Below, piece after piece: positions 37,205 through 64,000 of a DNA stretch of 64,000 nucleotides. The first letter of the stretch is position 1, and every line of letters starts with the position of its first letter. The position numbers and the translations under genes were made by a program. The DNA is from Bacillales bacterium UBA5026 (GTDB lineage: Bacteria > Bacillota_I > Bacilli_A > RF39 > UBA660): assembly GCA_002416285.1 (NCBI GenBank), contig DICM01000019.1:1632-65631 (forward strand), in the 5' to 3' direction. The notes below the pieces were generated by a model. That model was not told the DNA's origin. It worked only from the letters and a program-made list of their open reading frames with translations, and did not search any database.

Positions 37205-38611
37205 ATGAATGAAAAGGGTTTTGCAGTTTCAGGTATTTTATATTCTATTTTATTACTATTCATGATTATTGTAATTAGTGTAATAACAATGCTTGGAGAT
37301 CGCCGTACAGTACTAGAGAGAATCAAAAGAGAAGTCTTAGGAGAGCTTAGTGAAAATATAAGTGATTTTTATGATGAGGCAAAAGGTGTAAATAAACCGC
37401 AACTTTCTAGTGGGATGACACCGATTAAATGGGTTGGTGGAGTGGAAACGGTAACTACAGTAGATGATCCAGATTGGTATAATTACTCTAATAAATTATG
37501 GGCTAATGTTAAGACTGCTGATGGATCATATTGGGTATGGATACCAAGATACGCATATAAGATAACCAGTGGATATCACAGTAGTACAACGGGTACAATT
37601 GATGTTAAATTTTTAAAAGGAAGTTCCAATTTAACTGCTGATGGAACAACGATTGAAAGTAATGGATACTTTGCTGGAAGTAATGATACTTCAATGCATT
37701 ATTTTGTTCATCCTACTTTTCAAAATAATATTAACAAATATGGGTTTTGGGTAGCAAAATTTGAACCAACTGCTGCAGAGGGTGTAGCAAATGGATATCG
37801 TTCTGATTGGACATGTCCAACAATAGGAGATGATGTCACAACTAAAACAATTAAAGTCGTACCAAATGTTCAAAGCTGGAGATGTATTAGTATTTCAAAT
37901 GCTTATAATGCGAGTTTATCTATGAAAATGAAGACAATTTATGGATGGGAATTAAATAGTGTTGATTCCCATATGATGACAAACTTAGAATGGGGATCAA
38001 CGTATTATTTAACTTTATCAAAATACGGAGCTAATACAAATGAGGTATATATCAATAATAGTCAAACTTATATAACAGGATGTGCAGGAAATACAGCTTC
38101 TGAAACCTCTTATAATGGGTGTCAGAATGCCTATAATACTGCAATAGGTGTGAAAGCAAGTACGACATGGAATATTACGGGAATTTATGATATGAGCGGC
38201 GGAGCTTGGGAAAGAATGATGGGAGTTTACAATGATGTAATAGAGTCTAGTGGATTTACTACAAATGAGTTAACTAGTATTCCATCTAAATATATTACAA
38301 AATATACAACACCAACTTCTAATTTATTAAACAATGTAGGAATGGATTATGATGCAACCATCTATGGTGATGGAATCTATGAAACAAGTACAGGGGCATT
38401 CCGCTATAATGGTACAATATGGGCTGGAAATTCTCAAGGAGGTTGGGGAAATGAAATAACTTATCTTCCAACGGTTACTGGAGCATGGTTTAGTCGTGGA
38501 ACACATTTTGATTATACAGGTTTTGCAGGACTGGGTAGTTTTAGTGGGTACTATGGTAGTAAAGCGTATAGTTACGGTACCTTTCGTCCAATTGTTTCTA
38601 TAATAAAATAA
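37205..38611 (+). CDS. membrane-anchored protein with ComGG-like pseudopilin N-terminus and FGE/SUMF1-like C-terminal domain (tentative)
   Basis: N-terminus MNEKGFAVSGILYSILLLFMIIV (pilin-like, but no Glu at +5). From KGVNKPQL onward it is roughly 70% identical, by eye, to the C-terminal 400 aa of 51285..52940. Motif order WVWIPRYAYK, HPTFQ, WVAKFEP, YDMSGGAWER, SRG..F, FRPIV resembles FGE-sulfatase domains. Confidence 0.55.
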   Translation: MNEKGFAVSGILYSILLLFMIIVISVITMLGDRRTVLERIKREVLGELSENISDFYDEAKGVNKPQLSSGMTPIKWVGGVETVTTVDDPDWYNYSNKLWANVKTADGSYWVWIPRYAYKITSGYHSSTTGTIDVKFLKGSSNLTADGTTIESNGYFAGSNDTSMHYFVHPTFQNNINKYGFWVAKFEPTAAEGVANGYRSDWTCPTIGDDVTTKTIKVVPNVQSWRCISISNAYNASLSMKMKTIYGWELNSVDSHMMTNLEWGSTYYLTLSKYGANTNEVYINNSQTYITGCAGNTASETSYNGCQNAYNTAIGVKASTTWNITGIYDMSGGAWERMMGVYNDVIESSGFTTNELTSIPSKYITKYTTPTSNLLNNVGMDYDATIYGDGIYETSTGAFRYNGTIWAGNSQGGWGNEITYLPTVTGAWFSRGTHFDYTGFAGLGSFSGYYGSKAYSYGTFRPIVSIIK

Positions 38612-38680
38612 AAATGATATAATGTAATTGGATTTTATAAAATAGAAAGTAATAAATGTAAATATTATAGAGGAATTGGT

Positions 38681-39849
38681 GTGAAAGAGCGAGATGGTCA
38701 TAAAGATTTAATTGAATTTGGAGATAGATACAAAACTAGAATTGAATCTTTTCTATCATCTAATCCAGAAACAAGAGTAATTTTTCTAAATGCTGATTAT
38801 GGATGGGGAAAACAACTTTTATAAAGGAAGTTTTGAACATTCAAGAAAATAATAGGTATTCTCCATGGATGAATGAAACAGATAATTATATTGAAGAGTT
38901 ATATTTTCATGTTATGAAAAAAGATAAAAGTAAGATAAGCTCAACTATTATCTTGTTAACTGTTGTATTTGCTATATTAGGTACTTCCTTTGGGACGATA
39001 ATATCAATATTGTTAGATTTATTACAAACTAATAATTATACTTGCATCATTGCTGAAAATATGCAGTTATTATGTAATAATAATGGTGATTCTAGTATCT
39101 TGATCCTTTTAACTGCGGTTTCAGCAGTAATAATAATAATAATAATAATAATATTTATTTTAGGGTGTGTAATAAAACGGAGTCCAGTTCCATTTATTAA
39201 TTTGTATAAATGTGAACACGGAAAATATTATGAAAATAAACTCATAGAAAAAATCGTTGATAAAATCGATATTGCGCTTGTTATTGAAGATGTAGATAGA
39301 ATAGATGATATAGAATCATTACTTTTAGCTGTTAATAAGATATCTGAATATATTGAGCAAGCTGATCGGAAAAAATATATATTAATAACTGGTGATTACA
39401 ATTGAACAATAAGAAGAATTCATCAAAAGGATAACTTTGATAATAAAAGCATTTATTTAAATACTACCGAAAAAGGACCATATGTAATTGAAAAAATAAT
39501 ATCATTAAAAATTGATTTTGCTTCAATTAAAGATCGTGTCTATAATTTGTTAAACGAAAAAGAAATAAAAAATAATCTTTGTAATATTGAAAACGATGAA
39601 ATAATTAACTTTATTAGAACAAAATATTTAAGTTTAAGATTTTTTAATCATTTTTTAACTGATTATAAAAAGAGTATAGAATCAGGAGAAAGTGTTTTTC
39701 ATTTGTTATTAAAATATTATCAACAAGAAAAATTTTATAATATTGATCCATCAACTATTGAAGATTCTGTCTTTAATATATCACGTTTTCCTAATTGTTT
39801 AAATGATTGGGAGCTCCTACTACAAAAGAAAAAAGTAAATGTAAGTTAA
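38681..39849 (+). pseudogene. KAP-family P-loop NTPase gene disrupted by one frameshift and one in-frame TGA
   Basis: Fragment 38681..38824 ends ...FLNADYGWGKQLL*. ORF 38803..39405 starts MGKTTFIKEV. One extra base in the G4A4 run (38805-38812) would restore GWGKTTF (Walker A). Two TM helices are inserted after the P-loop, and LVIEDVDRIDD serves as Walker B, as in KAP NTPases. ORF 39547..39849 is in the same frame, and only TGA 39403-39405 interrupts it. Confidence 0.55.
39130..39153 (+). repeat. (ATA)8 trinucleotide microsatellite encoding Ile8 inside a TM helix
   Basis: Read directly: eight consecutive ATA codons. Confidence 0.9.
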
Positions 39850-39894
39850 ATTTGAAAGTGCAAAATTGTTGTGCAGGTAGTTTTGTAATTTTAT

Positions 39895-39942
39895 TAATTG
39901 TCAATGGCGAGCTTGCGAGTTCATTTATACCATTGACAATTA
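39895..39942. repeat. 13-bp perfect inverted repeat TAATTGTCAATGG / CCATTGACAATTA separated by 22 nt, in non-coding DNA
   Basis: Arms at 39895-39907 and 39930-39942, read directly. Confidence 0.85.
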
Positions 39943-39963
39943 GTTCATAGTTGTAATTATCTT

Positions 39964-39996
39964 AGCATTAAGTCAATGAAAATTTGACTTAATGCT
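39964..39996. other. 13-bp stem hairpin AGCATTAAGTCAA-TGAAAAT-TTGACTTAATGCT (no clear T-run)
   Basis: Perfect complementary arms at 39964-39976 and 39984-39996. Confidence 0.7.
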
Positions 39997-40158
39997 TATT
40001 TACTATATAATATACTTTGGTTTAAATGATAAATACAGGATGTGTAGTTACTTTTTGAAATTGCTTCTGCTGTATCTTTTAGTCGTGATTATATATTAAA
40101 ATGATAGACTTTTTTTGTTTTATTTTCTACCATTTTCAATGTTCTACTATGATTTTTT

Positions 40159-40935
40159 GTGCACTTTTTATTGAAACTACACTTTCTTTATTATTTCGTA
40201 CTCAATTGTGCACTTTACTTAGAATTCAACGAGAAAAAAGTAAAAATTAACAATGTAATTTATTCTATTGAAAAATTGAAAAAAAACTTTGAAAACAGTA
40301 AAGAGGAAAGTAAAAATGATATATTGAATAATAAATTTTTACAAACTATGTTTATTTATAATGAGGAACTAAAAGAAATATTTCAAGAGTATTTCAGCAC
40401 TAACAAATATCCTAGATTGAAAAAAGATCGCTTTACTAGTAATAACTATGATAATATCTATATGATTGGTAATAGTTTAAAACCTGATGGTATAAAAACA
40501 AATTTAGAAAAGTTTTTAGTAGGTGATAGCAACAATGAAGTATTGGCTGAGGGGTATCTTTTGAATAAAAGATGTTATTTTCAAAGTTTGACTTCTTCGA
40601 ATAATTATGAAAATTATAAATATAACAATGTAAAACATGATGATACAAATGAAATTGCAAGCAATAATTTTTATACAGCATACTTTGCTTGTTTTTTTAG
40701 AGATAATATAAAGGAAATTAAAAGAAATTATCCTAAAATATACTCGCAGATTTTTAAAATATTAGATATGAAAAAACAAAATAGCATCACCAGTGCTATT
40801 TTTTTTCATCAATTAATATTTTATCTACAATACCATATTTTAAAGCCTCTTCAGCATCAAGAAAGTAATCTCGCTCTGTATCTTGTTCTACAATTTTCAA
40901 ATCTTTTCCAGTTGTTTTTGCTAAAATTTTATTAA
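40159..40935 (+). CDS. doubtful ORF / gene remnant
   Basis: GTG start without a convincing RBS. The last ~50 codons run through the bidirectional terminator and antisense into clpP. At most the part up to about 40780 is likely meaningful. Confidence 0.2.
40778..40808. terminator. bidirectional terminator at the clpP 3' end
   Basis: AAAATAGCA-N7-TGCTATTTT with T8 on the plus strand and TTTGTTTTTT on the minus strand. Confidence 0.5.
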
Positions 40936-41380
40936 TTTTATCTTTAATTTTTAAAATATGTTCAGCAGCAATTTTAATTTCTGTTGCTTGACCTTGGGCT
41001 CCACCTAAAGGTTGATGAATCATAACTTCACTATTTGGTAGACAGCAACGCTTTCCTTTCGCTCCACAAGTAAGTAGGAACGCTCCCATACTCGCTGCCA
41101 TACCTAGGCAAATGGTCGACACATCACTTTTAATAAAATTCATCGTATCTAAAATCGCCATTCCGGCAGTAACACTACCTCCTGGAGAATTAATATAAAG
41201 ACTAATATCATCATGATTCAGTGAATCCAAATATAATAATTGGGCTACAATCGTATTTGAATTAATATCATCAATTTCTCCACATAAAATAATAATACGA
41301 TCCTTTAATAATCTAGAATAAATATCATATGCTCGCTCTCCACCACTACTTTTTTCAATAACTGTTGGAACTAAACTCAC
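40796..41380 (-). CDS. clpP: ATP-dependent Clp protease proteolytic subunit
   Basis: VPTVIE...[39 protein letters not shown] (Ser), MIHQPLGG (His). Confidence 0.95.
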
Positions 41381-41497
41381 AGAATCACCCTTTCTAGAAT
41401 TATCATAGCCGTAAAGGATTCAAAATATTCAAGAAATGTTGTGACAAAATGTTCATTTTTTGGTAAAATGAGAATAGTAAAAGAATAGAGGGATAAA

Positions 41498-43156: not shown

Positions 43157-43172
43157 AAAAGGAGAAATAAAT

Positions 43173-44198: not shown

Positions 44199-44202
44199 TA
44201 GG

Positions 44203-44238
44203 AAAAAGAGTTGAAAAACAAATAAAAACTCTTTTTTT
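44203..44238 (+). terminator. rho-independent terminator after gap
   Basis: 10-bp stem AAAAAGAGTT / AACTCTTTTT followed by T residues. Confidence 0.6.
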
Positions 44239-44321
44239 ATTTGTTTCAATTTTCTTTTTTATAATAACCTTGAAAAACGATAAGAAAAATTATACAATAG
44301 TAACAGAGAATAGGTGAAAAT

Positions 44322-46016
44322 ATGAAAGAAATAAAAAGGGAAAATGCTTTTACTTTAGTTGAACTACTAGGTGTTTTTACATTGATTGGAGTAATATTAC
44401 TAGTTGTTGTTCCAAATGTAACACAGTTACTAACAAAATCAAAAGGTCAGGATTACGAACGCTTTTTGAATGATATCTATTTGGCAACGGAAGCATATAT
44501 TCAAGGAAAGGGAAAAGAGTACTCAACTCTTGATACCGTGAGTGGAAAAGCTTTTGTACAAGTAAGAGAACTAGTTGATAACGGTTACTTAACAAGTACT
44601 AAAGTAAATCCTCAAACTAATCAAAAAATAAATTTGGATGCTACAGTAGTCGCGTTAAAAACGCCATCAGGAAATATTACATATGATTTTGTAAATTCAG
44701 ATATTACTATTAATGCATATAAAAAAACAGGTTTATTATTAAGTTATAGTATTGATTCAAAACCAACTACAATCTGGAAAGATCAAAGCGGAAGTGAACT
44801 CGGAAATGATGGTCAATTAATGGGATTTACTGCAAATAATGGATTTCAAGGGAACTCTGTTTATTTAGATGGAACAAACTATATTTTATCGAATGTCATT
44901 AATCCTGTTCAAGTGACTCTAAGTACCTATATAATGGTTCCAGAATTTAGTTCTGCAGAGCAAGTTTTAATGTCAAATTATGAAGGTGGAGGATATGGCT
45001 TTGTAGTAGATCAAAGTGGAAATCGTAAAATAGCTTTTCAAATCAATGTCAATGGAACTTACTATCAAATTAATTCTACAAAAAACTATGAGACAAATCG
45101 CTATTATCAACTAGTTGGTACTTACGATGGAACTACTATGAAATTTTATCTTGATGGAGTATTGCAAGGAACTAAAACAGTCGCTGGAAATATTACAGCA
45201 CCACAGAACTCTACTCATTTTATGGTGGGAGGAAATCCCAATGGAACCGTAGCCACTACAAAAACGAAATCTTATGTAAGTTCTGTTAAAATTTACAATC
45301 ATGCTTTAACAGAACAAGAAATAATGAACGATTATCAATTAGATAAAGCACGTTATAGTAGTCAACAGGAAAACTATGTAGAAGGATTACTTGCCCAATA
45401 TGATAGTTATAGTAAACCTATGAATAATGTTTGGAACGATTTGACTGGAAACGGGAAACATGCAACCATGAGCGGTTTTAATAACACTGTATCCAGTGGT
45501 TGGAATCAATTTAAATTAACATTAGATGGAATCGATGATTATATACAGACACCTAATGTTTTAACAACTAATAAAAATTATACTATTCAAATTGTATTTC
45601 AAACAGAGACGACGGCTGCTTGGGCTGACATTATGACATTTAATAGTGGAAACGTCTCAAATGATATGAATGGTCGTATCGAAATAGTTGCAGATTTGAA
45701 AAAGTATTATTGGTATGGTCCTGGCCCTATTCCTACTGGAACATCTATATTTGAAATGAATAATAAAATTCCGGCAACCATAACAATGTCAGTTGGAAAT
45801 GAAAAAACGATAGTTTATGTAGATAATGAGGTTACATATCAAGGAGCTACACAAGAATATAATAATGGGCAGTATGCATCGATTAATTTTGGTAAGCGAA
45901 TTGAAGGTGGCAATATGAACTGTACTATTTATGCGATTCGTATCTATAACAAAGCCCTAACAAAAGAAGAAATAATGAAAAATCATCAATTGGATCATTT
46001 CCGTTTTGGAATCTAA
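44322..46016 (+). CDS. prepilin-signal protein carrying two LamG (concanavalin A-like lectin) domains
   Basis: N-terminus MKEIKRENAFTLVELLGVFTLIGVILLVVVP (class III signal with Glu5). Two LamG_3-like units end in VKIYNHALTEQEIMNDYQLD and IRIYNKALTKEEIMKNHQLD. Own promoter TTGAAA...TATACAAT upstream. Confidence 0.7.
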   Translation: MKEIKRENAFTLVELLGVFTLIGVILLVVVPNVTQLLTKSKGQDYERFLNDIYLATEAYIQGKGKEYSTLDTVSGKAFVQVRELVDNGYLTSTKVNPQTNQKINLDATVVALKTPSGNITYDFVNSDITINAYKKTGLLLSYSIDSKPTTIWKDQSGSELGNDGQLMGFTANNGFQGNSVYLDGTNYILSNVINPVQVTLSTYIMVPEFSSAEQVLMSNYEGGGYGFVVDQSGNRKIAFQINVNGTYYQINSTKNYETNRYYQLVGTYDGTTMKFYLDGVLQGTKTVAGNITAPQNSTHFMVGGNPNGTVATTKTKSYVSSVKIYNHALTEQEIMNDYQLDKARYSSQQENYVEGLLAQYDSYSKPMNNVWNDLTGNGKHATMSGFNNTVSSGWNQFKLTLDGIDDYIQTPNVLTTNKNYTIQIVFQTETTAAWADIMTFNSGNVSNDMNGRIEIVADLKKYYWYGPGPIPTGTSIFEMNNKIPATITMSVGNEKTIVYVDNEVTYQGATQEYNNGQYASINFGKRIEGGNMNCTIYAIRIYNKALTKEEIMKNHQLDHFRFGI

Positions 46017-46072
46017 CAAAATTGTAATAAATATAAATGAAAAAATATGGTAAAATAAAAAAGGAGGGAACT

Positions 46073-50200: not shown

Positions 50201-50250
50201 CTTCTTTATTTCTGTAAAGAAAGTGTTAAAATTTTGGTTTTTTAAAATTC

Positions 50251-50257: not shown

Positions 50258-50346
50258 AAAATAGATGAATTTTGCTCTAGTAATAGGATACCTGTTTGTA
50301 GTATAATTAAATTCAAGGTAAGCAGTACTTTAGAAAGGGAATCGAT

Positions 50347-51123: not shown

Positions 51124-51129
51124 TATTAC

Positions 51130-51166
51130 AAAGAAATCAGAAAATCAATTTTTTCTGATTTCTTTT
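51130..51166 (+). terminator. rho-independent terminator after spo0A
   Basis: 15-bp perfect stem AAAGAAATCAGAAAA / TTTTCTGATTTCTTT with loop TCAATT. Confidence 0.8.
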
Positions 51167-51284
51167 GTATTTAATATATGAATTTATAAAATTATTCGTT
51201 GAATTTCAAAATTGATTGTGTTAGAATGAAGGAGAATAGGATTGCTCTAGGCAAGCATACTAGATTCTAGAAGGAAGCTTTATT

Positions 51285-52940: not shown

Positions 52941-53154
52941 TTTCCAAAAGGATCTTTCTGAGTAAATAGATTTTATTCAGTAGTAAAATGACCACACTAG
53001 AGTTTATATTTTTAATAGCAGTACTATTGGTTACTTGCTATTTTTTTGTGAATGAAAACAAAATGTCTAAAAATGAGAAATCCAACCAAATCCATATTAT
53101 TTTTGGTAACAAATATCATATTTTATGGTAAAATATTGAACGGAGATGATTATT

Positions 53155-56007
53155 ATGAAACCGACGATTCTTTGTATTTTAGATGGTGTTGGATTCCGTG
53201 AGGAAATCCATGGAAATGCTGTCAAACAAGCAAATATGAAGACCTTTAATAAATTAATGGAAGAATACCCACATAGTTTGCTAGAAGCAAGTGGTGAATT
53301 AGTGGGATTACCAGCAGGTCAAATGGGCAATAGTGAAGTTGGGCACATGAACATTGGTGCAGGCAGAATTGTGTATCAACCACTACAACTAATTAATGAG
53401 ATGATAAAAGATCAGTCTTTTTATGATAACGAAGAATTAAAAAAGGCTATGAATCATGCAAAGGAAAATCACTCTAGATTACATCTATTTGGATTACTTT
53501 CTGATGGAGGTATTCATTCGAGCATCAACCATTTATTTGCTCTTTTAGATATGTGTAAAAAAGAAGGCGTAGAAGAAGTCTATCTGCATATGTTTATGGA
53601 TGGAAGAGATACTCTTCCTGATGTCGCTTTGACTTACCTAAAACGATTAGAAGAAAAATGTAAGGAATTACATCTTGGTAAGTTAGCATCAATATCAGGG
53701 AGATACTATGCGATGGACCGAGACAATCGTTGGGATCGTATCGAGAAAGCATATCGTGCGATTGTAGATGGTGAAGGAGAAACTTACACAAATTATGAAG
53801 AAGCGATTCGTCATAACTACGAACAAAATAAACTAGATGAGTTTATTATTCCAGCTGTTTTCCACAAAGAAGGAACTGTGCAAGAAAATGACGCGATGAT
53901 TTTATTTAATTTTCGTCCAGATCGCGCAAGAGAATTATTTAAAGCTTTGACAAATCCTGAGTTCAATGAATTTGATCATACAGAATTTCATAATGTCCCA
54001 TTAGTAACGATGATGCCAGTAAGTGATGAGGTGATTGGAGCACCTGCTTTTGAACTTCAAAAATTAACAAACACTTTAGGAGAATATGTAAGTGGATTTG
54101 GTAAAAAGCAGTTACGCATTGCTGAAACAGAGAAATATGCTCACGTTACTTACTTCTTCGATGGAGGAATCGAAAAGGATTTACCAAACTGCAAACGAGT
54201 TTTAATTCCATCACCTAAAGTAGCAACTTACGACCTACAACCAGAAATGAGTGCCAATGAATTAACAGATCAATTAATAAAAGAACTAGATCAAGATTAC
54301 GATCTTGTTATTTTAAACTTTGCTAATGGAGATATGGTTGGACATACAGGTGATATGAATGCAACGATAAAGGCATTGGAAACAGTGGATCAATGTTTAA
54401 GCAGAATCCAAGAAAAAATCGACGAGTTGGGTGGTGTATTAGTTGTTACAGCAGATCATGGAAACAGTGATGTTATGCTGGATGAAGAAGAGCATGTTAT
54501 AACATCACATTCTACAAGCAAAGTTCCATTTATTGTAACGAAGAAAGATATTTCACTCAAAGACGGTAAATTAGGCGATATAGCACCTACCTTATTAACT
54601 TTGATGGAGTTACCTATTCCAAAAGAAATGTCTGGACAAAATTTGATTGAACAACAGGTGTTACCCAGGCGCAAACCATTAAAAAAATTAAGTAAGGAAT
54701 TCATATTTATTGTTTTATCAATCATTTCGATACTTACATTTTTATGTTTTTATGGATATCGTTTTTTTCACTATCGTAATTTAGAACTTCATCCTCCTAA
54801 GACAGATCGTACTCTAGCTACTAAATTACTGGATGCAGAGCATTTGAAAGAAGGAAATTTAGTCAAGGATGGAAAAGATTATCGCTATACTGGAGCTCTG
54901 AATAATAATTATGTTTGGTATTCTGGTAGACTTTGGAGAATTGTAGAGATTTATGAAGATAAAAAGATAAAGTTAGTTAGCGAGGATTCTATAACTTCAC
55001 TGGTTTGGGATTCTTCTAGCAACGATTATTTAACCTCTAATATTCGTTCTTATTTAAATACTACCGACGAACCTAATTCTGGAGTTATCTATCGTAGTCT
55101 TTCAAAACAAGAAATTTATTTAACAACGGCTGATTCCTGTATTGATACTATAAAAGATAGTAAAAGCACGTGTAAAAAAACTGTGAATGATCCCGTTACT
55201 TTATTAACTTATTCAGATTATGTTTTATCTGGAGGGAATGAAGGTTATCTAAATAATGGAAATTATTTTTGGCTATTAAACCCTTCTGAAGATGGAGTAT
55301 GGTATGTCTTTGGAGAAGGTGGAATCAAAAGCAAAAGTAATGATTCGGAAAAGTCTCTTTATGGAATAAGACCTGTTATCTATTTAAATAGTACAGTAAA
55401 CTTTAAAAATGGAGATGGAACAGAATCTAATCCATATACTATCGAAGATATAACTACATCTACTCTAGTTAATAAGAGTATTGGAGAGTATGTATCTTAT
55501 AGTGGTTATCTTTTTCGAATTTTGGCGAAAAATGGCGAAGGCGTAAAATTATTAAAAGAAGAACCTATTTCTTATAATGGTGAATTAGTTTCAAAAGTGT
55601 TTTCTAAAACAAGTACGAGTTATAATCCAAATGAATGGGATAGTATTGCTTACTACTTAAATAAAACCTTTTATAAAGACTTAAAGAACAAAGAATATTT
55701 GATTAAGGGGACTTGGTATAGAGGTGCTTACAATAAAGAAACTGGATATGATTATAAAACAATCTATAGTGATCCTATAAAGGCATATATTGGCCTTCCA
55801 CAATTAGATGAAATTACATTTCATAAAGAAGCCTTATTAACTATGACACAGGTTGATAATGACCTTTTATATGTGGTTAAAAGTAATGGGAGTGGGTATA
55901 CACTATCTTTAGATGAAGAAAGTATCATTTATCCAGCACTTTATTTAAAAAGTGATTTACAAATAACAGGAGGTGACGGAAGTAAGGGGAATCCTTATAC
56001 ATTATGA
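53155..56007 (+). CDS. gpmI: 2,3-bisphosphoglycerate-independent phosphoglycerate mutase fused to a TM segment and two extracytoplasmic 'WRI...RPV...NPY' modules
   Basis: Residues 1-500 are a complete GpmI (ILDGVG, NSEVGHMNIGAGR, ADHGN, ...GDIAPTLLTLMELPIPKEMSGQNLIE). The frame continues without a stop into KKLSKEFIFIVLSIISILTFLCFYGYRFF (TM, 54700-54765) and about 415 further aa. ATG 53155 is preferred. Confidence 0.85.
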   Translation: MKPTILCILDGVGFREEIHGNAVKQANMKTFNKLMEEYPHSLLEASGELVGLPAGQMGNSEVGHMNIGAGRIVYQPLQLINEMIKDQSFYDNEELKKAMNHAKENHSRLHLFGLLSDGGIHSSINHLFALLDMCKKEGVEEVYLHMFMDGRDTLPDVALTYLKRLEEKCKELHLGKLASISGRYYAMDRDNRWDRIEKAYRAIVDGEGETYTNYEEAIRHNYEQNKLDEFIIPAVFHKEGTVQENDAMILFNFRPDRARELFKALTNPEFNEFDHTEFHNVPLVTMMPVSDEVIGAPAFELQKLTNTLGEYVSGFGKKQLRIAETEKYAHVTYFFDGGIEKDLPNCKRVLIPSPKVATYDLQPEMSANELTDQLIKELDQDYDLVILNFANGDMVGHTGDMNATIKALETVDQCLSRIQEKIDELGGVLVVTADHGNSDVMLDEEEHVITSHSTSKVPFIVTKKDISLKDGKLGDIAPTLLTLMELPIPKEMSGQNLIEQQVLPRRKPLKKLSKEFIFIVLSIISILTFLCFYGYRFFHYRNLELHPPKTDRTLATKLLDAEHLKEGNLVKDGKDYRYTGALNNNYVWYSGRLWRIVEIYEDKKIKLVSEDSITSLVWDSSSNDYLTSNIRSYLNTTDEPNSGVIYRSLSKQEIYLTTADSCIDTIKDSKSTCKKTVNDPVTLLTYSDYVLSGGNEGYLNNGNYFWLLNPSEDGVWYVFGEGGIKSKSNDSEKSLYGIRPVIYLNSTVNFKNGDGTESNPYTIEDITTSTLVNKSIGEYVSYSGYLFRILAKNGEGVKLLKEEPISYNGELVSKVFSKTSTSYNPNEWDSIAYYLNKTFYKDLKNKEYLIKGTWYRGAYNKETGYDYKTIYSDPIKAYIGLPQLDEITFHKEALLTMTQVDNDLLYVVKSNGSGYTLSLDEESIIYPALYLKSDLQITGGDGSKGNPYTL

Positions 56008-57020
56008 AAAAGAAAAATAAAATAGCAATTTTTACTTTAATCTTTATTGACCTTTGTATCATGATGTTTCTTTTTTTGAGTTACGGACCAATTAATTATT
56101 TCCGTGATCTTTTGATTACAACAGCGATGTCAACCAAGAGTCATAAGTATCTCGCATATACTCTATATGATGATGGAACAATTCTATCGGTATTAAAAAA
56201 TAATTATACAAAAGAAATAACAGATGATACTGATACAAGTCATATTAAATTAACAGACATTAAAGAACAAGATAATTATGATTCAAAATATGAGGAACAG
56301 ATCTTAAAGAAAGATGAAGAGAATGATCTTTATAAAGTAATTTCACTTAGTGGAAATGGATACAAAGGATATGTAGTAGCAATCTATGATCCCACTAGAA
56401 TATCACTAGTAACTTCAAAATATTTAGGATCAAGTGGTCAGTTTTTAAATACGATGGCAAAAGAACAAAGTGCGAAAGTAGCGATTAATGCTGCTGGATT
56501 TGTCGATATTGGTGGAGCTGGTGATGGAGGAACTCCGACTGGACAAATGATTCAAAATGGTAAACTGATATGGAATGGTGCCGCAACTGGCTGGGGCGGA
56601 GGACTGGCAGGATTTACCAAAGATGGTATTTTGATGCTGACACATAGTAATGCTGCAGAAGCAATCAAATCCGGAATGGTCGATGGTGTTGAATTTGGAC
56701 CATTTCTTGTGGTAAATGGACAAGCTGCTGAGATAAAAGGTAACGGTGGAAGAGGTGTTCATCCACGTACTATTTTAGCGCAACGACAAGATGGTATCGT
56801 TCTATTCTTTATTATCGATGGAAGACAACCTGGTTACAGTATTGGCATTAGTTTAGCTGATATGACAGATTTATTATTAAAATACAAAGCTTATAATGCA
56901 GTAAATTTAGATGGTGGAGCTTCTAGTAGCCTAAATATTAATGGAAAAATAATAAATAAACCATGCGCAGTGAGTGCTACTGGAGAAAGACCAATCCCTG
57001 CTGCTTGGATGTTAAAATAA
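56004..57020 (+). CDS. phosphodiester glycosidase (DUF2233) family protein, membrane anchored
   Basis: N-terminal TM. AINAAGF, GFTKDGILML, FGPFLVVNG, HPRT, IDGRQPGYS, NLDGGASS. ATGA overlap with the upstream stop. Confidence 0.7.
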   Translation: MKKKNKIAIFTLIFIDLCIMMFLFLSYGPINYFRDLLITTAMSTKSHKYLAYTLYDDGTILSVLKNNYTKEITDDTDTSHIKLTDIKEQDNYDSKYEEQILKKDEENDLYKVISLSGNGYKGYVVAIYDPTRISLVTSKYLGSSGQFLNTMAKEQSAKVAINAAGFVDIGGAGDGGTPTGQMIQNGKLIWNGAATGWGGGLAGFTKDGILMLTHSNAAEAIKSGMVDGVEFGPFLVVNGQAAEIKGNGGRGVHPRTILAQRQDGIVLFFIIDGRQPGYSIGISLADMTDLLLKYKAYNAVNLDGGASSSLNINGKIINKPCAVSATGERPIPAAWMLK

Positions 57021-57112
57021 GAGTCAATTGAAGTGATACATTAAAAGTAGACAAGAGAAAAAAACTCAGTCTACTTTTTTGTATGGTAAAATTTTAATAA
57101 GGAGTTGATTTT

Positions 57113-57427
57113 ATGGCAAGACCAAGTGGAACTAAAAATGTAATGAGAACCCCTGAAGAAAAAGAAAAAATAGTACTTGAATATTTAAACACTAAATGTA
57201 GTCAACAAACAATTGCTGAAAAGTATGAAATAATGAGAAGAGTACTGCAACAATGGATACAAAAATATGAACAGTACGGAATTGTTGGATTAAAATCAAA
57301 AACAGGGAAACATCAAAATTCTAATGCAGGAAAATATAATCGACATCCATCTGAAGAAGAAAAATTGAAACAGAAAATAACAAGGTTGGAAATCGAGGTA
57401 GCCCGATTAAAAAAGGTTATCAGGTGA
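57113..57427 (+). CDS. IS3-family transposase OrfA (HTH / leucine zipper)
   Basis: RTPEEKEKIVLEYL...SQQTIAEKYEI...LQQWIQKYEQYG and a C-terminal heptad region ending at the slippery site. Confidence 0.85.
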   Translation: MARPSGTKNVMRTPEEKEKIVLEYLNTKCSQQTIAEKYEIMRRVLQQWIQKYEQYGIVGLKSKTGKHQNSNAGKYNRHPSEEEKLKQKITRLEIEVARLKKVIR

Positions 57428-57530
57428 AAGGAGTTGGGGATCAAAAGGAATACGTTACTATATTCGATGTGAATATGAAATAATTGACTATTTTAGTAAT
57501 AATTATTCTATAACTACTCTTTGTAAGTTA

Positions 57531-58340
57531 ATGTCAGTAAGTAAATCGGGTTTCTATAAATGGAAATATAGGAAATCTAACCCATCAACAAGAGAATTAT
57601 CCAGGCAAGAAAATGTCAGACTGATAAAAGAAGTCCATAATAGACATCCTTCACATGGTTACGGATGGATAAATGCTTTTATTAAAAATAAATACGGAAA
57701 GGTTTTTAGTGATAATTATGTTCATCGAATCTGTAAATATGAAGGTATTCGGTCCCAAGGCAAACATTATCGATGGAAAAATCCAGGAGAAGAACAATAT
57801 AAATCCAATAATTTAATTTGGAATGAGTGGAGTTGTTTAACTAGACCATTAGAGGTAATCGTTTCTGATATGACGGCATTTCGTGTAAAAGGAATTTACT
57901 ATGAATTAGCATTGTACTTTGATGCATGGAACAAAGAAATCATTGGTTATGGTCTTGATTCCAGAAAAGGAAGTACAAAAACATATTATGAAGGCTTGTA
58001 CCAAGTTTTAGACAAAATAAAAGACCAAACCACTGATCTAGTAATTCTACACACAGATCAAGGATCGGTCTACGCATCGAAGTCATACAATGACCTCGTA
58101 GAAAATTATAACATAGAAAGGTCTATGAGTCGAGCTGGAACTCTAACTGATAATCCCGTTAACGAATCCTTAAATGGTTGGATTAAAGAGGAGTTGTATA
58201 TTGATTTTGATTTAAAACATTGTAATAATGTATCAAGATTAATTGAAAAATATATTTACTATTTTAATAATGAACGGCCTTCCTATGCCTTAAACTATAA
58301 AACCCCAATTCAATTTAAACATGAATTAGGGTTTCTATGA
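57531..58340 (+). CDS. IS3-family transposase OrfB (DDE/rve core), apparently not reachable by the canonical -1 frameshift
   Basis: VSKSGFYKW, VSDMTAF (D), LHTDQGSVY (D), NPVNESLNGWIKEE (E). See the IS finding for the extra frame disruption at about 57463-57470. Confidence 0.8.
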   Translation: MSVSKSGFYKWKYRKSNPSTRELSRQENVRLIKEVHNRHPSHGYGWINAFIKNKYGKVFSDNYVHRICKYEGIRSQGKHYRWKNPGEEQYKSNNLIWNEWSCLTRPLEVIVSDMTAFRVKGIYYELALYFDAWNKEIIGYGLDSRKGSTKTYYEGLYQVLDKIKDQTTDLVILHTDQGSVYASKSYNDLVENYNIERSMSRAGTLTDNPVNESLNGWIKEELYIDFDLKHCNNVSRLIEKYIYYFNNERPSYALNYKTPIQFKHELGFL

Positions 58341-58483
58341 GTTTTTTATAAACTGTCTACTTTTGCTTGACTAGTTCAATTGACTCTTTTTTACTTTTCT
58401 TTTAAACCCTAAATTGGTCTATAAATGTTGTTTTTCATACTAGAAAATGGTATCATAAAGAAGTATAGGGTAAGGTGTCAAGT

Positions 58484-61400
58484 ATGAAGAAAAATGGATT
58501 TACATTAATTGAATTGTTAGCGGTAATTGTGATAGTAGGAGTGTTATCCTTAATCGCAACTCCAGTTATTTTAGGAGTGATTGAGAGTGCTCGAAGAGGA
58601 GCAGCTGTCAATAGTACTTACGGTTATGTGGAGGCAATTGAAAAGTCTAGTCTTCAAGATATGATTGATAAAAGTGAATATATCACGAAGAAAGATGGAA
58701 CCTATAGTGCAGAGACAATTAAACCTGTAAAATATAAGGGAAACGATCCAGTCGATGTATGTGTAACCATTCAAAATGGAGAAGTTTACTCTGGTTCATT
58801 TCAGTTTGGCAAATATGTTGTTGATTATGAAGATGGAAAAGCAGCGATTAATGATGAAAAAGAAAATGCAGGTTGTGGAGGAAATAGTGAGAATCCAGAA
58901 GAGAAACCAAAAGATAGTGATGATTTAAAAGAAGACACCAAAGTAAAAAATGGAGAGAATTATTATATCGGAGCAAACCCAAAGAACTGGGTCTTATTTG
59001 GTAGGGCCGATGAGAGTGATAGTAGTAGTCTACTAATGTGGCGAATTATCAAGATTGATAAAAACGGAATTAAGATGGTCTATGAAGGAATCCAAAATGG
59101 AGAGAATGTACCGTTAGAGGATGGAAGAGCATTGTTAAATGGAACGATGGGAGTTGCTTGGAATAGTAATGGTACAAACCTTTGGAATGAGAGTGATTTA
59201 AAAGAGAAACTAACTAGTTGGTTATCCAGAATTGCAGTAGTAGATATGAGTAAATATGTTGAAAGTACAACATGGAATATTGGAGGAATACCTGATCTTA
59301 ATCCAACGACATTAAGAACCTTTTTAGAGTATGGGAATATTGATAGTAATGGATTAGGAGGAACATATCAAGGAATCACGGATACGAAAAGTCCAATTGG
59401 AATGATAAGTCCATGGGATTATATGTATACGAGTAGTAATGAGGAATGTAGTAAGAGTTATGTATCAGCAGGAACAAGTAATGAGTGTTCACTTGATAGT
59501 GAAGGAAGATTAAATAACTTTTTATATAAAAACAAATATTCTTATTGGACGATGAATGCAGTAAATAGTGCAAGTGATCAAGCATGGAATATCACGAATT
59601 CAGGAATTATTGCCAGTAGACAAGTGAACTATAGTATTTATTCTGTAAGACCAGTATTAAATTTAAAACTTGATACGAAGTTTGTTACTGGCGATGGAAG
59701 TATTGAAAATCCATATATCGTAGAAGATTATCTAGCAAATCTATTCGTGAAACCAGAAATCAAATTAAATGGAGAGAAAACAGTTGTTCTTTACCAAGGA
59801 GAACAATATGTTGATGCCGGAGCAACGGCATACGACGAACAAGATGGAGATATTAGTAATAAAATTACGACCGAAAGCAATCTGGATGTGAACAAAGTAG
59901 GAAGTTACACAATTACATATAATGTAACCGATAGTGATGGGAATAAGGCAATACCGGTAACTAGAATCGTGAAAGTAGTAGAAAAAGATACCCCAAGAAT
60001 TACCTTGAATGGAGAAAATCCTAGTTATATAACAGTTGGAAATACCTATACTGAATTAGGAGCCAAAGCGATGGATCCAAACTATGGAGACATTAGTAGT
60101 TCGATTGTTATTAATGGAATTGTAGATACGAATACACTTGGAACTTATTATTTAACGTATCATGTAACGAATCAAGATGGACTAGAGGCAATACCAGTAG
60201 AACGAAGAGTGGTGGTGAAGGCATCTACTCCTAAAATTACCCTAAATGGAAGTAGCTTAGCTTTAGTAGAGGTTGGAGCTTCTTATATGGAAGAAGGAGC
60301 AATCGCTAGTGACTCAGTGGAAGGTGATTTAACAGATCGAATTAGAATCACTGGAAATGTAGATACCAGTATGGTTGGCATCTATCAAATCCGCTATTCT
60401 GTAACAAACTTTTATGGTGCGAATGCATATGTAGATAGAAGAATCAATGTCGTTGGGGTAGCAGGTCCCGAAATTACTTATACACCAAATGAAGAAGAAA
60501 GTGCGAAAGTAGGACAAAGTACTACAATTGAAGTAAAAAAGAAAAGTTATGATATTGATTCGAAGACACTAAAATATTTTACTTATAATAAGGTATCAGG
60601 AGCTTTGCCTAGCTATGAGACAATAGAAGAGTTTGAACGTCTTTTTCGGACAAGTTATAAAGATAGAGAAATATTAAAAATTGGAAAAGGAACAGGAGAA
60701 TACTATTTCTATGCAATGGCAAAAGATGTCTATAAAGATACAACTTATAAAGAATCAGGATTATTCCGTTTAGATAATTTTGCTCCTATCATTACATTAA
60801 ATACTGGGGCAAATAGAATTTTAATTAATAGCACATATATAGATCCAGGAGCGACAGCATATGATGCCTATTTTGATGGAGATTTAACGAATCAAATAAC
60901 AGTTCAAAATAAAGTCAACACGAGTAAAGAGGGGATTTATCAAGTAATTTATAAGGTAAGTGATAGTGTTGGAAATGAAACAAAAAAAGTCCGTAATATC
61001 GAAGTCTATCATTCTGTTCCAACCATTGGGCTAATTGGAGGAAGTAAAATAAAAGTACGCTATGGTAGCAGTTACATAGATCCAGGGTATACAGCAATGG
61101 ATGAGATTGATGGTGATTTAACAAGTCAGGTGAAAGTAACTGGAACTGTCGATACTTCGAGAGAAGGAAGTTATGAAGTTATATATCAAGTAAAAAACTC
61201 GTTAGGATATGAAACAACGAAGACTAGAATTGTTGAAGTATATATTCCAAGTCCAGTGATTACAATCAGAGGGGCAAATCCAGCGAAAGTGAGAGTAACG
61301 AGTACTTATAATGATGCTGGAGCAACTGCTCTTGATGAAATCGATGGGGATCTTACTAATAAGATTACTGTAATTAGTAATATTAATACTATGGTAGAAG

Positions 61401-64000
61401 GAACGTATGAGGTAGTTTATCATGTTACTAACAGTTTAGGAAAGACAACTACAGCAACAAGAATTGTTCAAACTTATGCAGAAATGCCAGTAATTACGTT
61501 AAAAGGAGACAATCCGACAATTCTATATAAAGGGGCTACATACACCGAAGCAGGAGCAATCGCGACGGATCCAGTAGAAGGAGATATTAGTTCTAATATT
61601 ACAATTAGTGGAATAGTAGATACAAAAAAAGCAGGAAATTATATAATCACTTATGAAGTGACCAATAGTTATGGAAAGAAAGTAAAAATAGAGCGCTCAG
61701 TAATTGTTCGAGCTTCAGCTATTCGAATTGCACTAAAAGGAGAAAGTATTGTAACATTACTTCGAGGAACACAGTATGTCGAAGCGGGATATAGTGCAGT
61801 GGATGAGATTGATGGGGATATTACAAGTAGTATAGTAATCGACTTAGGGGGACTCAATATTAATAAAGCAGGAACCTATACGATTACTTATACTGCTACG
61901 AATCCTAGCGGAGATAAAGCTACGGTGAAGCGTACCATAATTATCAGAGATCCAAAAGTAGAAATCACATTAAATGGAAATAGTGTGGTAGAAGTGCCAA
62001 TTGGATACCCCTATAGTGACCTAGGAGCAACGGCAATGGATGAGTTACTTGGAGATGTTAGTTCAACCATTACAGTAGAACACAATATCAATACCAATGT
62101 ACTAGGTATTTATCAAGTTACTTATAGAGTGGTTAGTAGTGGAGTAATTGCTACCAAAGAACGAACGGTTAAAGTAGTCGCTCTTTCTGGACCAACTGTA
62201 ACGTTTGAAACGAATGGAAACGGAAGTTATTTGAAAGAGAATCAAACAAAAGTAACCGTATCGAAAAATAACTATGATTTCGTAGTCGATTCCATTTTCT
62301 ACCAGTGGACGACCAGTTTGAGTCGACCAAGTGAATCAAGCTTTCAAACACACTTTGCTTCAGGAGATATAGTTAAAACCCCAGAGCAAGCAACTGGAAA
62401 GTATTACCTATGGATACTAGCCAAAGATACGTATGGAAATACAACAGTCGTACCAAGTAATGCATTCCATCTAGATAATACTGCACCAGTCTTAACCTTA
62501 AAAGGAAAGAACCTAATCGAAGTACCAGCGGATGGAACGTATCAAGATCCAGGAGTAACGGTAGTAGAAAATGATAGTGGATTAGATAGCAATGGAGTAG
62601 TCATTACATCAAATGTGATTTCTGGAGTAATTGGAACGTATCAAGTTGTTTATACAGCAACCGATAAAGTAGGAAATGTAGCAGAGCCTGTAAAACGTAC
62701 GGTGTCAATTATTGAAGCACGATTACAAGATGCCCCAGGAGAAGGATATGTCAAGAAATATGATACTTCGTACTTTGTTGGAGAGAATCCAAATAATTAT
62801 GTAGTCTTTGGAAATGCAGCAACAAATGACTATGATTATATTCCGATTTTATGGAGAATCATTAAGGCTGACGATAATGGGATTAAGATTATCTATGAAG
62901 GAGTAAAACAAGGAACCGGAACCAAAGAGAATGGAACGATTGGAAGTTCTAGTTATGATTCTACTAACAATAACTATAACCGACCAGCAGATATCATAAG
63001 TATTTTAAATAATTTCTATAATAATTTAAAAGAGGAAGATAAGGCAAGTTTAACAAAAGCGATCAATTGGTGTGTTGGAGCAACGAGTAGTCCATATAAT
63101 ATTGATGCCTTTCGAACAGATGAATGTAATACGTTATCGACAAACAAGAGTGTGATTGGATTGGTGAGTGGGTTAGATTACCTATTTACAACCGGATCTG
63201 CATGTGATGCTTATAATCAAGCTTCCTGTGGAAATCAAAACTTCTTAAAGAAGAGTTATAATTATTTCACAATGAGTAGTGATATTGAAAGTCAAGTATC
63301 ACAGTTTATTGCAAACAGTAATGGTGCATTAACAAGAACTGAAGTAACAAGCAAACAAGAAATTCGCCCAGTGATTAATCTTCGCCCAGATGTGTTAATC
63401 AAAGGTGGAGAAGGAACGTATGAAAAACCATACCAGTTAAATAATCGTGTACCAGTAGAAGACACGAAAGCACCAACGGTAAAGTTCTCACCAAATGAGG
63501 CAACGGGAAACTTAGACGGAGTAGAAGTATTAGTGAGTGATGACATCACTGGAGTGGACAACAATAGTTTAAAATATGTATGGACAACGAATACGACCCA
63601 ACCGAGTGTTGATAAGTTTGTGAACAATTTCTCAAATGGAGATAAAGTTCTAGTACCAACAGAACAGTCAGCAACCTACTATTTATGGATTCTAGCGAAA
63701 GATCGAAAAGGGAATCAGAGTATTACGAGAAGTGGACTTTATAAGATTGATAATGTACCACCAGTGATCACAATTAAAGGAGATAATCCCTATTCACAGA
63801 AACCAGGACTAACTTATGTCGATGCTGGAGCAACGGCAGTGGATGCGATTGATGGGGCAGTATCTGTTCAAACAACAACAAATGTAAATCCAAATATCGA
63901 AGGAACATATCAAGTAACGTATACAGCAGTGGATAAAACAGGGAATAAAGCAACGGCAGTAAGAACTGTTGTGATCGGATATTTAGAGATACGAACACCA
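58484..64000 (+). CDS. giant prepilin-signal surface protein (at least 1,839 aa, 3' end outside the window) with Ig-like (DUF5011-type) repeat array
   Basis: ATG 58484 lies 6 nt after AAGGTG. My hand translation of this frame found no stop up to base 64000. N-terminus MKKNGFTLIELLAVIVIVGVLSLIATP. Not in the ORF track (no stop in the window), and the track lists only short minus-strand ORFs across this region. Confidence 0.85.
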   Translation, partial: MKKNGFTLIELLAVIVIVGVLSLIATPVILGVIESARRGAAVNSTYGYVEAIEKSSLQDMIDKSEYITKKDGTYSAETIKPVKYKGNDPVDVCVTIQNGEVYSGSFQFGKYVVDYEDGKAAINDEKENAGCGGNSENPEEKPKDSDDLKEDTKVKNGENYYIGANPKNWVLFGRADESDSSSLLMWRIIKIDKNGIKMVYEGIQNGENVPLEDGRALLNGTMGVAWNSNGTNLWNESDLKEKLTSWLSRIAVVDMSKYVESTTWNIGGIPDLNPTTLRTFLEYGNIDSNGLGGTYQGITDTKSPIGMISPWDYMYTSSNEECSKSYVSAGTSNECSLDSEGRLNNFLYKNKYSYWTMNAVNSASDQAWNITNSGIIASRQVNYSIYSVRPVLNLKLDTKFVTGDGSIENPYIVEDYLANLFVKPEIKLNGEKTVVLYQGEQYVDAGATAYDEQDGDISNKITTESNLDVNKVGSYTITYNVTDSDGNKAIPVTRIVKVVEKDTPRITLNGENPSYITVGNTYTELGAKAMDPNYGDISSSIVINGIVDTNTLGTYYLTYHVTNQDGLEAIPVERRVVVKASTPKITLNGSSLALVEVGASYMEEGAIASDSVEGDLTDRIRITGNVDTSMVGIYQIRYSVTNFYGANAYVDRRINVVGVAGPEITYTPNEEESAKVGQSTTIEVKKKSYDIDSKTLKYFTYNKVSGALPSYETIEEFERLFRTSYKDREILKIGKGTGEYYFYAMAKDVYKDTTYKESGLFRLDNFAPIITLNTGANRILINSTYIDPGATAYDAYFDGDLTNQITVQNKVNTSKEGIYQVIYKVSDSVGNETKKVRNIEVYHSVPTIGLIGGSKIKVRYGSSYIDPGYTAMDEIDGDLTSQVKVTGTVDTSREGSYEVIYQVKNSLGYETTKTRIVEVYIPSPVITIRGANPAKVRVTSTYNDAGATALDEIDGDLTNKITVISNINTMVEGTYEVVYHVTNSLGKTTTATRIVQTYAEMPVITLKGDNPTILYKGATYTEAGAIATDPVEGDISSNITISGIVDTKKAGNYIITYEVTNSYGKKVKIERSVIVRASAIRIALKGESIVTLLRGTQYVEAGYSAVDEIDGDITSSIVIDLGGLNINKAGTYTITYTATNPSGDKATVKRTIIIRDPKVEITLNGNSVVEVPIGYPYSDLGATAMDELLGDVSSTITVEHNINTNVLGIYQVTYRVVSSGVIATKERTVKVVALSGPTVTFETNGNGSYLKENQTKVTVSKNNYDFVVDSIFYQWTTSLSRPSESSFQTHFASGDIVKTPEQATGKYYLWILAKDTYGNTTVVPSNAFHLDNTAPVLTLKGKNLIEVPADGTYQDPGVTVVENDSGLDSNGVVITSNVISGVIGTYQVVYTATDKVGNVAEPVKRTVSIIEARLQDAPGEGYVKKYDTSYFVGENPNNYVVFGNAATNDYDYIPILWRIIKADDNGIKIIYEGVKQGTGTKENGTIGSSSYDSTNNNYNRPADIISILNNFYNNLKEEDKASLTKAINWCVGATSSPYNIDAFRTDECNTLSTNKSVIGLVSGLDYLFTTGSACDAYNQASCGNQNFLKKSYNYFTMSSDIESQVSQFIANSNGALTRTEVTSKQEIRPVINLRPDVLIKGGEGTYEKPYQLNNRVPVEDTKAPTVKFSPNEATGNLDGVEVLVSDDITGVDNNSLKYVWTTNTTQPSVDKFVNNFSNGDKVLVPTEQSATYYLWILAKDRKGNQSITRSGLYKIDNVPPVITIKGDNPYSQKPGLTYVDAGATAVDAIDGAVSVQTTTNVNPNIEGTYQVTYTAVDKTGNKATAVRTVVIGYLEIRTP
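59750..62715 (+). repeat. array of ten ~78-aa (~234-nt) coding repeats of DUF5011/Ig-like type (an eleventh lies at about 63760-63985)
   Basis: Each unit fits P.I.L.G.n....G..Y.d.GA.A.D...GD(I/L)(S/T)..I.....(V/I)(D/N)T...G.Y...Y.V....G.......R.V.V. Units start near 59750, 59988, 60226, 60790, 61012, 61244, 61479, 61713, 61951 and 62485. The array is interrupted by ~105-aa modules at 60463-60790 and 62182-62490. Confidence 0.8.

Follow-up and report, generated by a model that had tools for sequence, protein, structure and literature searches.

A 64-kb stretch of DNA from an uncultured gut bacterium (hereafter the window; positions are those of the window unless another locus is named) appears to encode a set of large proteins in which bulky modules follow type IV pilin N-termini. 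We propose, with a probability of about 0.6, that the products of the genes starting at positions 51285 and 58484, and probably that of the gene starting at 44322 (genes are named here by these positions), are modular type IV pilins, in which modules of a ligand-binding type have been grafted onto the C-terminus of a pilin and are displayed by pilus machinery. The window corresponds approximately to positions 1665–65664 of contig DAMCXE010000002.1 (98,925 bp) of the metagenome-assembled genome (MAG) GCA_032085635.1, has a GC content of ~30%, and contains mostly housekeeping genes (gatCAB, aspS, nusA, infB, tyrS, ezrA, scpAB, thiI, clpP, gap, pgk, tpi, spo0A and gpmI) along with two tandem SASP genes. 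The source organism has sporulation genes and is labelled Bacilli; its relatives are gut MAGs labelled Bacilli, Tenericutes, Mollicutes or Bacillales, e.g., Candidatus Fimihabitans, which also carry sporulation genes. Our Pfam scan covered every open reading frame (ORF) of at least 90 residues in the window, and matches were judged by the curated cut-offs of the models (21.2 bits for N_methyl (PF07963), 16.3 for TIGR02532, 23.5 for DUF6273 (PF19789), 23.3 for FGE-sulfatase (PF03781) and 330.65 for TIGR01307).

Class III signals and pilin modules

Based on their model scores, we regard 51285 and 58484 as firm class III (prepilin) signal proteins: the N-terminus of 51285 scored 32.8 bits against N_methyl and 32.4 bits against TIGR02532, and that of 58484 scored 27.4 and 30.7 bits, respectively, all above the cut-offs. 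The 551 residue product of 51285 (51285–52940, + strand) consists of the class III signal and pilin module (residues 1–135, nt 51285–51689), a short linker, and a cargo of ~400 residues (residues 145–551, nt 51717–52937) with a predicted C-type-lectin fold of the FGE type. An AlphaFold model made for 51285 alone had a mean predicted local distance difference test (pLDDT) score of 91.4 (80–93 in the pilin part) and predicts a pilin fold with a 56-residue alpha-1 helix (residues 9–64) and a four-strand sheet (residues 73–123), followed by a separate 400-residue domain. The second gene is far larger; the window holds only its 5' 1,839 codons (58484–64000, + strand), and the gene runs past the window end to give a full product of 2,979 residues. 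Here the pilin module (58484–58888) is followed by a DUF6273-like module (58901–59743), an array of Ig-like repeats and a second DUF6273-like module (62681–63463), with Pfam matches to PF16403 in 11 stretches and to GLUG repeats near the C-terminus of the full product.

The pilin status of 44322 (44322–46016, + strand, 564 residues), located between gap and pgk, is borderline by sequence. Its N-terminus (..NAFTLVELLG.., with Ala at -1) is ComGC-like or minor-pilin-like, scoring 18.9 bits against N_methyl, under the cut-off, and 27 bits against the ComGC model, again under the cut-off of that model. The rest of this probable modular pilin contains two LamG domains (Laminin_G_3, E 4e-31, two stretches), and an orthologue is found at the same position in the syntenic strain L176. 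The 468 residue product of 37205 (37205–38611, + strand) has a hydrophobic N-terminal helix with a KGF motif (MNEKGFAVSG..), but it had no match at all to Pfam or NCBIfam models, those for pilins included. It has neither Glu5 nor a pilin head, and from residue 60 onwards (residues 60–468, nt 37382–38608) it aligns to the cargo of 51285. Tip subunits of the ComGG type, which lack Glu5, are a possible parallel; however, as its sequence reads, 37205 only resembles a pilin-signal protein and should not be counted as one. An earlier note on this DNA had listed four pilin-signal N-termini, of which 51285 and 58484 thus stand, 44322 is borderline and 37205 falls away. A six-frame motif scan of the window identified no further pilin-like N-terminus.

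Modules shared between genes and strains

The modules of these proteins recur in one another and in a further gene encoding a 950 residue fusion of the cofactor-independent phosphoglycerate mutase GpmI (53155–56007, + strand). The stalks of 51285 and 58484 are 58% identical over 130 residues (E 5e-44), and the cargoes of 37205 and 51285 are 66% identical over 412 residues. A module with the pattern 'WRI..RPV..GDG..NPY' occurs twice in 58484 (29% identity, E 4e-27) and twice at the C-terminus of the GpmI fusion (26% identity, E 4e-7), and a BLAST comparison matched it between the two proteins (24% identity, E 6e-8). The LamG pair, by Pfam, is confined to 44322 within the window. All of these relationships had been claimed in the earlier note, and each claimed similarity between modules survived proper alignment.

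Exchange of modules is also seen between strains. At the position of 37205, the syntenic strain L176 encodes a 689 residue protein (P0033) of which the first 60 residues are identical to those of 37205 and are followed by LamG and then by the cargo, so that the gain or loss of a module at a fixed locus is directly visible. On another contig of the window's own genome there are three more modular pilins, two with the arrangements N_methyl, LamG and cargo (773 residues) and N_methyl, Ig and cargo (712 residues), and a 552 residue neighbour. Judged by these alignments, shuffling of modules among genes and strains is real, and since the same cargo modules stand behind anchor-like helices in 37205 and in the GpmI fusion, the modules would seem to move between carriers as well.

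Pilin repertoire of the clade

The stalk is ~50% identical to many standalone pilins of 130–170 residues. Short and modular pilins differ hardly at all in their N-terminal ~45 residues, and the alignment shows no variation in G6–I18 and L24–P28. The short pilins are encoded in tandem, with housekeeping genes and not machinery as their neighbours; in a related MAG (L010, 7109–9793) three genes with the A_ENA (endospore appendage) domain lie beside such tandem short pilins. More than 389 matches were confirmed when species-representative genomes were scanned, and in 95 loci from the clade we counted 142 pilin-signal ORFs, 84 of them longer than 300 residues. All but one of 71 large clade pilins matched N_methyl. 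Their recognisable cargo comprised LRR, DUF285, DUF6273, Ig-like, Fib_succ_major and F5/8-C domains, and most of the cargo had no Pfam match.

A broader reading, which we put forward tentatively and hold to be doubtful, is that this clade of small-genome, uncultured, Bacilli-like gut organisms uses a considerable part of its genome for modular pilins, that cargo is exchanged between loci and strains, and that a single PilB/PilC/PilD machine presents interchangeable tip adhesins, among them an undescribed family with the FGE-type lectin fold and subunits of ~3,000 residues. If so, the pilin repertoire of the clade would be a pilus-based counterpart to the sets of variable surface proteins seen in mycoplasmas.

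Assembly machinery and the case for display

The window itself encodes no recognisable assembly machinery: among its scanned ORFs there was no match to T2SSE, T2SSF or Peptidase_A24, and tblastn searches of the window with the PilB, PilC, PilD and TadA proteins of relatives were also negative, in agreement with the statement of the earlier note that the 64 kb contains no PilB, PilC or PilD. This absence is unremarkable, as the short pilins of the clade also sit among housekeeping genes, and as PilC and PilD, sometimes with PilB, form a cluster of their own in related contigs. The DNA examined from the same genome or species comprised the window, ~3 kb past its right end, and 20.8 and 22.1 kb of a second contig; a further 10 kb to the left of the window was seen solely in near-identical contigs of other assemblies. 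The later negatives for PilB-type ATPases rest on tblastn, an earlier screen with regular expressions having overlooked PilB genes in the Peptidase_A24 loci described below. As the first 95 loci amount to 1.48 Mb from roughly 50 genomes of ~1–1.5 Mb, a single-copy gene at a random position should turn up about once in them, and the absence of PilB from these loci therefore weighs little; the two TadA genes and one Peptidase_A24 gene that were seen agree with this expectation.

That one Peptidase_A24 gene led to the machinery of related organisms. Locus L090 starts with the C-terminus of this gene (PF01478, 34.3 bits), ~10 kb upstream of a 617 residue pilin that carries the same cargo (32% identity, E 6e-34), and using this fragment we fetched 80 metagenome loci. 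In low-GC contigs the genes have a conserved order: PilC (~595 residues) and PilD come first, in many cases with a PilB-type ATPase encoded on the other strand, and minor pilins follow; PilC was present in 53 of the 80 loci and PilB in 22. In L156 the order is PilC, PilD (7359–8168), a modular pilin of 389 residues, PilB, a pilin and a minor pilin. The PilB of L156 matched PilF, GspE and PilB proteins with E-values of 1e-99 to 1e-107, far better than PilT, and its PilC matched that of Myxococcus (1e-52). In two loci (L102, 7714–11826, and L110) an unfused gpmI follows immediately downstream of the PilC-PilD pair; in the window, the gene that precedes gpmI is instead the modular pilin 51285. 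A 1,316 residue protein with two DUF6273-like modules is encoded upstream of pilC in these contigs, and in L103 a TadA-type ATPase gene is located ~3 kb downstream of the PilC-PilD pair.

Based on these observations, we envisage that a PilD/ComC-type peptidase would cleave after Gly(-1) and that a PilB/PilC-type machine would build a pilus or pseudopilus from the clade's short pilins (~130–170 residues). The modular pilins could be incorporated by way of their N-terminal helix, which hardly varies, with the tip as the most likely site, and their putative binding modules would thereby be held beyond the cell wall. The hydrophobic N-terminal or internal helices of 37205 and the GpmI fusion, respectively, resemble simple membrane anchors. 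Surface display by a pilin carrier, as the earlier note had suggested, is a reasonable reading for proteins that combine a pilin module with interchangeable C-terminal modules of a binding type.

Several points weigh against this reading. Neither PilB, PilC nor PilD was found in the DNA examined from the same genome or species (the window, ~46 kb more, and the 10-kb left flank in near-identical contigs), and the contigs that bear the machinery come from related organisms, not from the same organism. The sole secretion-type ATPase adjoining the pilins of close relatives is of the Tad type and has a Flp pilin of its own. It is hard to see how a pilus machine would handle a subunit of 2,979 residues; 44322 scores below the model cut-off, and 37205 has to be set aside for want of Glu5 and a head. 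The strongest alternative is anchoring without a filament, in which the class III N-terminus, cleaved or not, serves only as a membrane anchor or builds a very short wall-spanning pseudopilus or bindosome-like layer, and the proteins are ordinary surface adhesins with a borrowed pilin helix and form no extended pilus. This would account for the presence of the same cargo on apparent plain anchors (37205, the GpmI fusion, P0047 and forms of ~600 residues with a different N-terminus), for the finding of no assembly ATPase other than the Tad type near ~140 pilin genes, and for subunit sizes (up to 2,979 residues) that seem poorly suited to polymerisation; there is also a precedent in Sulfolobus, where sugar-binding proteins with class III signals depend on the bindosome assembly system (PMC3047682). 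However, these proteins keep not only the helix but also the full pilin head with its predicted four-strand sheet, as well as Pro22; their N-terminal ~45 residues are nearly identical to those of short pilins that have no other obvious role; and in relatives a PilB-type extension ATPase and PilC are conserved beside PilD, with a modular pilin inside one such cluster. We consider a filament-free anchor unlikely, though it is the main rival to display by a type IV filament.

The Tad-type loci (L004, 17513–21659; L024, 6724–10510) encode a Flp pilin with a G/QALVEY motif, two TadE-like proteins, a ParA/TadZ-like protein and TadA, which in L004 is followed by TadBC; in L024 the gene for a 172 residue pilin of the GFTLIELL type starts one base after the tadA stop codon. 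We compared the Tad locus of the relatives with the TANB77 pilus cluster (PMC11680825), but the sizes and content differ (TadA 441 vs. 640 residues, TadBC 504 vs. 693 residues), and the clade was therefore not assigned to TANB77.

The FGE-type cargo domain

Foldseek searches with the cargo of 51285 identified as best matches in the PDB three chains of TaqVP (5vf4; E ~1e-8, probability 1.0), the variable protein of a diversity-generating retroelement (DGR), whose C-type-lectin fold is of the FGE subtype (PMC6328139). The best viral matches were a phage "sulfatase-modifying factor enzyme-like" protein (E 1.5e-8) and tail and tail-collar fibre proteins. In the Pfam scan neither 37205 nor 51285 matched PF03781, and the cargo homologs P0045, P0062 and P0097 reached only 16–18 bits, below the cut-off. 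The model therefore points to an FGE-type C-type-lectin fold, and the label "FGE/SUMF1-like" given to the cargo in the earlier note is apt at the level of fold but does not extend to membership of the FGE-sulfatase/SUMF1 family. The domain has no Pfam model of its own. With a threshold of E ≤ 1e-3 it is represented by 3,236 clusters at 50% identity, and tandem copies of it are present within giant proteins. The C-terminal ~80 residues are the most divergent among paralogs (45–58% identity vs. 60–95% elsewhere), and it is at the C-terminus of the domain that TaqVP has its binding site (PMC6328139).

The fold leaves room for a catalytic role, i.e., that the cargo is an exported FGE/SUMF1-type enzyme for oxidative sulfatase maturation or EgtB/OvoA-like C-S chemistry rather than a binding module. 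Beyond the similarity to the FGE subtype and the sub-threshold PF03781 matches in homologs, this could draw on a weak structural match to OvoA (rank 9) and on two nearly invariant cysteines, Cys376 and Cys389. These cysteines appear to lie elsewhere in the domain than the Ser-Cys-Cys triad that forms the catalytic residues of human FGE (PMC6328139). No window protein reaches any FGE model, TaqVP and phage tail fibres, the closest matches by structure, are binding proteins and not enzymes, the authors of the TaqVP study judged FGE activity unlikely for such proteins (PMC6328139), no sulfatase gene was found nearby in the Pfam scans of the window, and the region that diverges most among paralogs is the one corresponding to the TaqVP binding site; we therefore find an enzymatic cargo very unlikely, and favor a binding module. 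Still less credible is the idea, raised by the TaqVP match and by the poorly conserved C-terminus, that the cargo genes are DGR targets with hypervariable C-terminal receptors, and we rejected it, as there was no reverse transcriptase among the Pfam-scanned ORFs, no reverse transcriptase-like motif in loci L001–L095 and no template/variable repeat pair in the window, and as none of the 12 positions at which the 98% identical strain variant P0001 differs falls in the last ~180 residues (371–551).

The same cargo is also found on proteins of ~600 residues (P0045, P0053, P0062, P0067 and ~40 others) whose conserved N-terminus is of another kind, namely a signal or anchor followed by '..SFAYF(S/T)ANITGTE..' and ~190 further residues. 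The 1,316 residue protein of L102 starts similarly. A resemblance of '..SFAYFTANITG..' suggested a TasA/SipW-type carrier for these proteins, which was unsupported by any Pfam or NCBIfam match.

The GpmI fusion and DUF6273-like modules

The GpmI part of the fusion is an intact cofactor-independent phosphoglycerate mutase to about nt 54650; it matched TIGR01307 over its full length (residues 5–501) with 670.8 bits, above the cut-off, and contains the motifs GNSEVGH, DMVGH and ADHGN, the catalytic residues being judged by eye. The C-terminal part comprises a long predicted, largely hydrophobic helix (~54694–54789), which we take to be a membrane span, and two DUF6273-like modules (54799–55470 and 55471–56004). 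If this helix does span the membrane, the protein would combine a cytoplasmic enzyme, a membrane span and external modules. The fusion was called as one gene in two independent assemblies and recurs in the syntenic relative L008 with a degenerate GpmI part. There, P0145 (L008, 10001–12298) was seen by eye to have a GpmI part that lacks the GNSEVGH serine motif, and a small His_Phos_1 gene is located ~6 kb downstream.

The C-terminal 450 residues of the fusion are homologous to standalone proteins of ~450 residues that start with the same hydrophobic helix and have two DUF6273 modules. In the window the matches to PF19789 are at best marginal: module 1 of 58484 scored 22.9 and 20.8 bits against a gathering score of 23.5, and in the Pfam scan neither module 2 of 58484 nor either module of the GpmI fusion gave a match. 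PF19789 is matched by the homologs of the C-terminal half of the fusion and by five of the 71 large clade pilins (best E 5e-20). For the double DUF6273-like region (AlphaFold pLDDT 88), the sole significant structural match was to an IgA peptidase of Thomasclavelia ramosa, matches to C-type-lectin-like domains being non-significant. The fusion shares modules with the giant pilin 58484 but is itself no pilin.

Directly after the fusion there is a gene for a NAGPA-type phosphodiester glycosidase (56004–57020, + strand; PF09992, E 2e-38), and a gene of this type directly follows the double-DUF6273 homolog in all four neighbourhoods inspected (L005–L008). In L005–L007 a trio of CotH, VTC and DUF4956 genes precedes the standalone double-DUF6273 gene with its NAGPA partner, and these two face a set of cell-wall polysaccharide genes, a context that hints at a role of the pair in the handling of envelope glycopolymers.

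Relation to known systems

The earlier note had not recognised this as a described system. However, modular pilins have been defined by Raynaud et al. 2021 (PMC8179133), who reported more than 1,200 proteins with 264 architectures, PF13385 (LamG-type) being among the most frequent modules on N_methyl proteins, and who predicted many further pilin modules without database signatures. The architectures of 51285 (pilin plus FGE-type C-type-lectin domain) and 58484 (pilin plus DUF6273-like, Ig-like and GLUG modules) are those of modular pilins so defined, and 44322 has LamG twice. The concept is established for PilB, with a vWA module, and PilC, with a concanavalin-A-like lectin module, of Streptococcus sanguinis (PMC8179133). 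The window proteins resemble these two in having a class III signal and a small pilin module, a short linker and a bulky module that is not pilus-specific, and in the proposed display of a binding module by a filament, probably at its tip; 44322, with a LamG/ConA-type lectin module (PF13385) behind its probable pilin N-terminus, shows a further likeness to modular pilins. In contrast, the S. sanguinis pilins are encoded in a pil locus with the machinery and have been shown in filaments, whereas the window genes are scattered among housekeeping genes and encode predicted pilins. The window also differs in having an FGE-type cargo with no database signature, many paralogs per genome and one subunit of 2,979 residues. 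We thus take the finding to be real yet within the described class, a further large example and not a new kind of system.

The best structural matches of the cargo link it to DGR variable proteins (TaqVP, TvpA, Mtd) and to the tips of phage tail fibres, and the putative C-terminal binding surface of these proteins is also the most divergent part of the window cargo (PMC6328139). Unlike DGR proteins, the window cargo had no reverse transcriptase, template repeat or adenine-type hypervariation in the ORFs, loci and strain variant compared, and it is carried by a pilin or membrane anchor, not by a phage fibre or lipoprotein. The Sulfolobus bindosome resembles the window proteins in that functional proteins which are not pilin-like bear a prepilin-type signal and need an assembly system akin to that of pili (Bas) to be exposed at the surface, but it is archaeal, its cargo consists of solute-binding proteins of ABC transporters, and its genes lie near those of transporters (PMC3047682); the window cargo is lectin- or adhesin-like, and we saw no link to transporters. 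Large minor pilins and pseudopilins (CofB, GspK, ComZ and ComGG-type proteins) likewise have bulky extra domains on a pilin. In these proteins the pilin head is retained, and their genes belong to machinery operons, whereas 37205 consists of a helix and cargo only and matches no pilin model.

What the analysis adds is a large undescribed cargo family, many scattered pilin genes in an uncultured gut clade with exchange of modules between strains, and an unusual GpmI fusion. Our understanding of pili is unchanged by this, but the published concept is extended to a new clade and to new modules. If the display reading is right, these proteins would be an extreme natural case of grafting a module onto a pilin and could show how a type IV filament machine handles very bulky subunits. 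The ~400-residue FGE-type lectin-fold domain, with its ~3,200 clusters, would then be a candidate receptor for glycans or host ligands in abundant uncultured gut organisms, and the swapping of modules between strains at fixed loci would indicate selection on adhesion specificity.

Neighbouring genes and minor observations

The earlier note had further claimed that each pilin-like gene has its own promoter-like hexamers, that 37205, 44322 and 51285 directly follow terminators, and that 58484 follows an insertion sequence element. Promoter and terminator scans carry little information in DNA so AT-rich, and the promoter-like hexamers were near chance (46 vs. 43±7 expected and 82 vs. 61±8 expected). 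Terminator-like hairpins are present 3' of the second SASP gene (37127–37146) and of spo0A (51130–51165), but none was detected between gap and 44322. The element upstream of 58484 is of the IS3 family (57113–58340, + strand; orfA 57113–57427, orfB 57531–58340, with HTH_28/HTH_Tnp_1 and rve domains), directly precedes the giant gene as stated, and occupies the same site in a second assembly (L013).

The modular genes also interrupt a glycolytic set. Between 43101 and 56007 unrelated genes break up this set in the order gap, LamG pilin, pgk, LPG_synthase_TM, a GT4 glycosyltransferase, tpi, spo0A, modular pilin and gpmI fusion, and the stretch from LPG_synthase through GT4 and tpi to spo0A is conserved in the relative L008. 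Between 37205 and clpP there is a region of ~2.2 kb (38803–40935) with three ORFs that have no Pfam match, in which a 13-pair hairpin (39964–39996) overlaps a near-consensus promoter-like site; this region is missing from the syntenic strain L176, where clpP directly follows the 689 residue gene.

Elsewhere in the window, two neighbouring ORFs of 280 and 394 residues (32687–34796), both lacking a Pfam match, have in common a 96-nt repeat at 75% identity, and the 394 residue ORF contains three tandem 57-nt units (33869–34039). A cluster of small Pfam-less ORFs around an ABC ATPase gene is conserved between the window (6815–9640) and the relative L002 (3861–8039), and in relatives this cluster recurs beside modular pilin genes.

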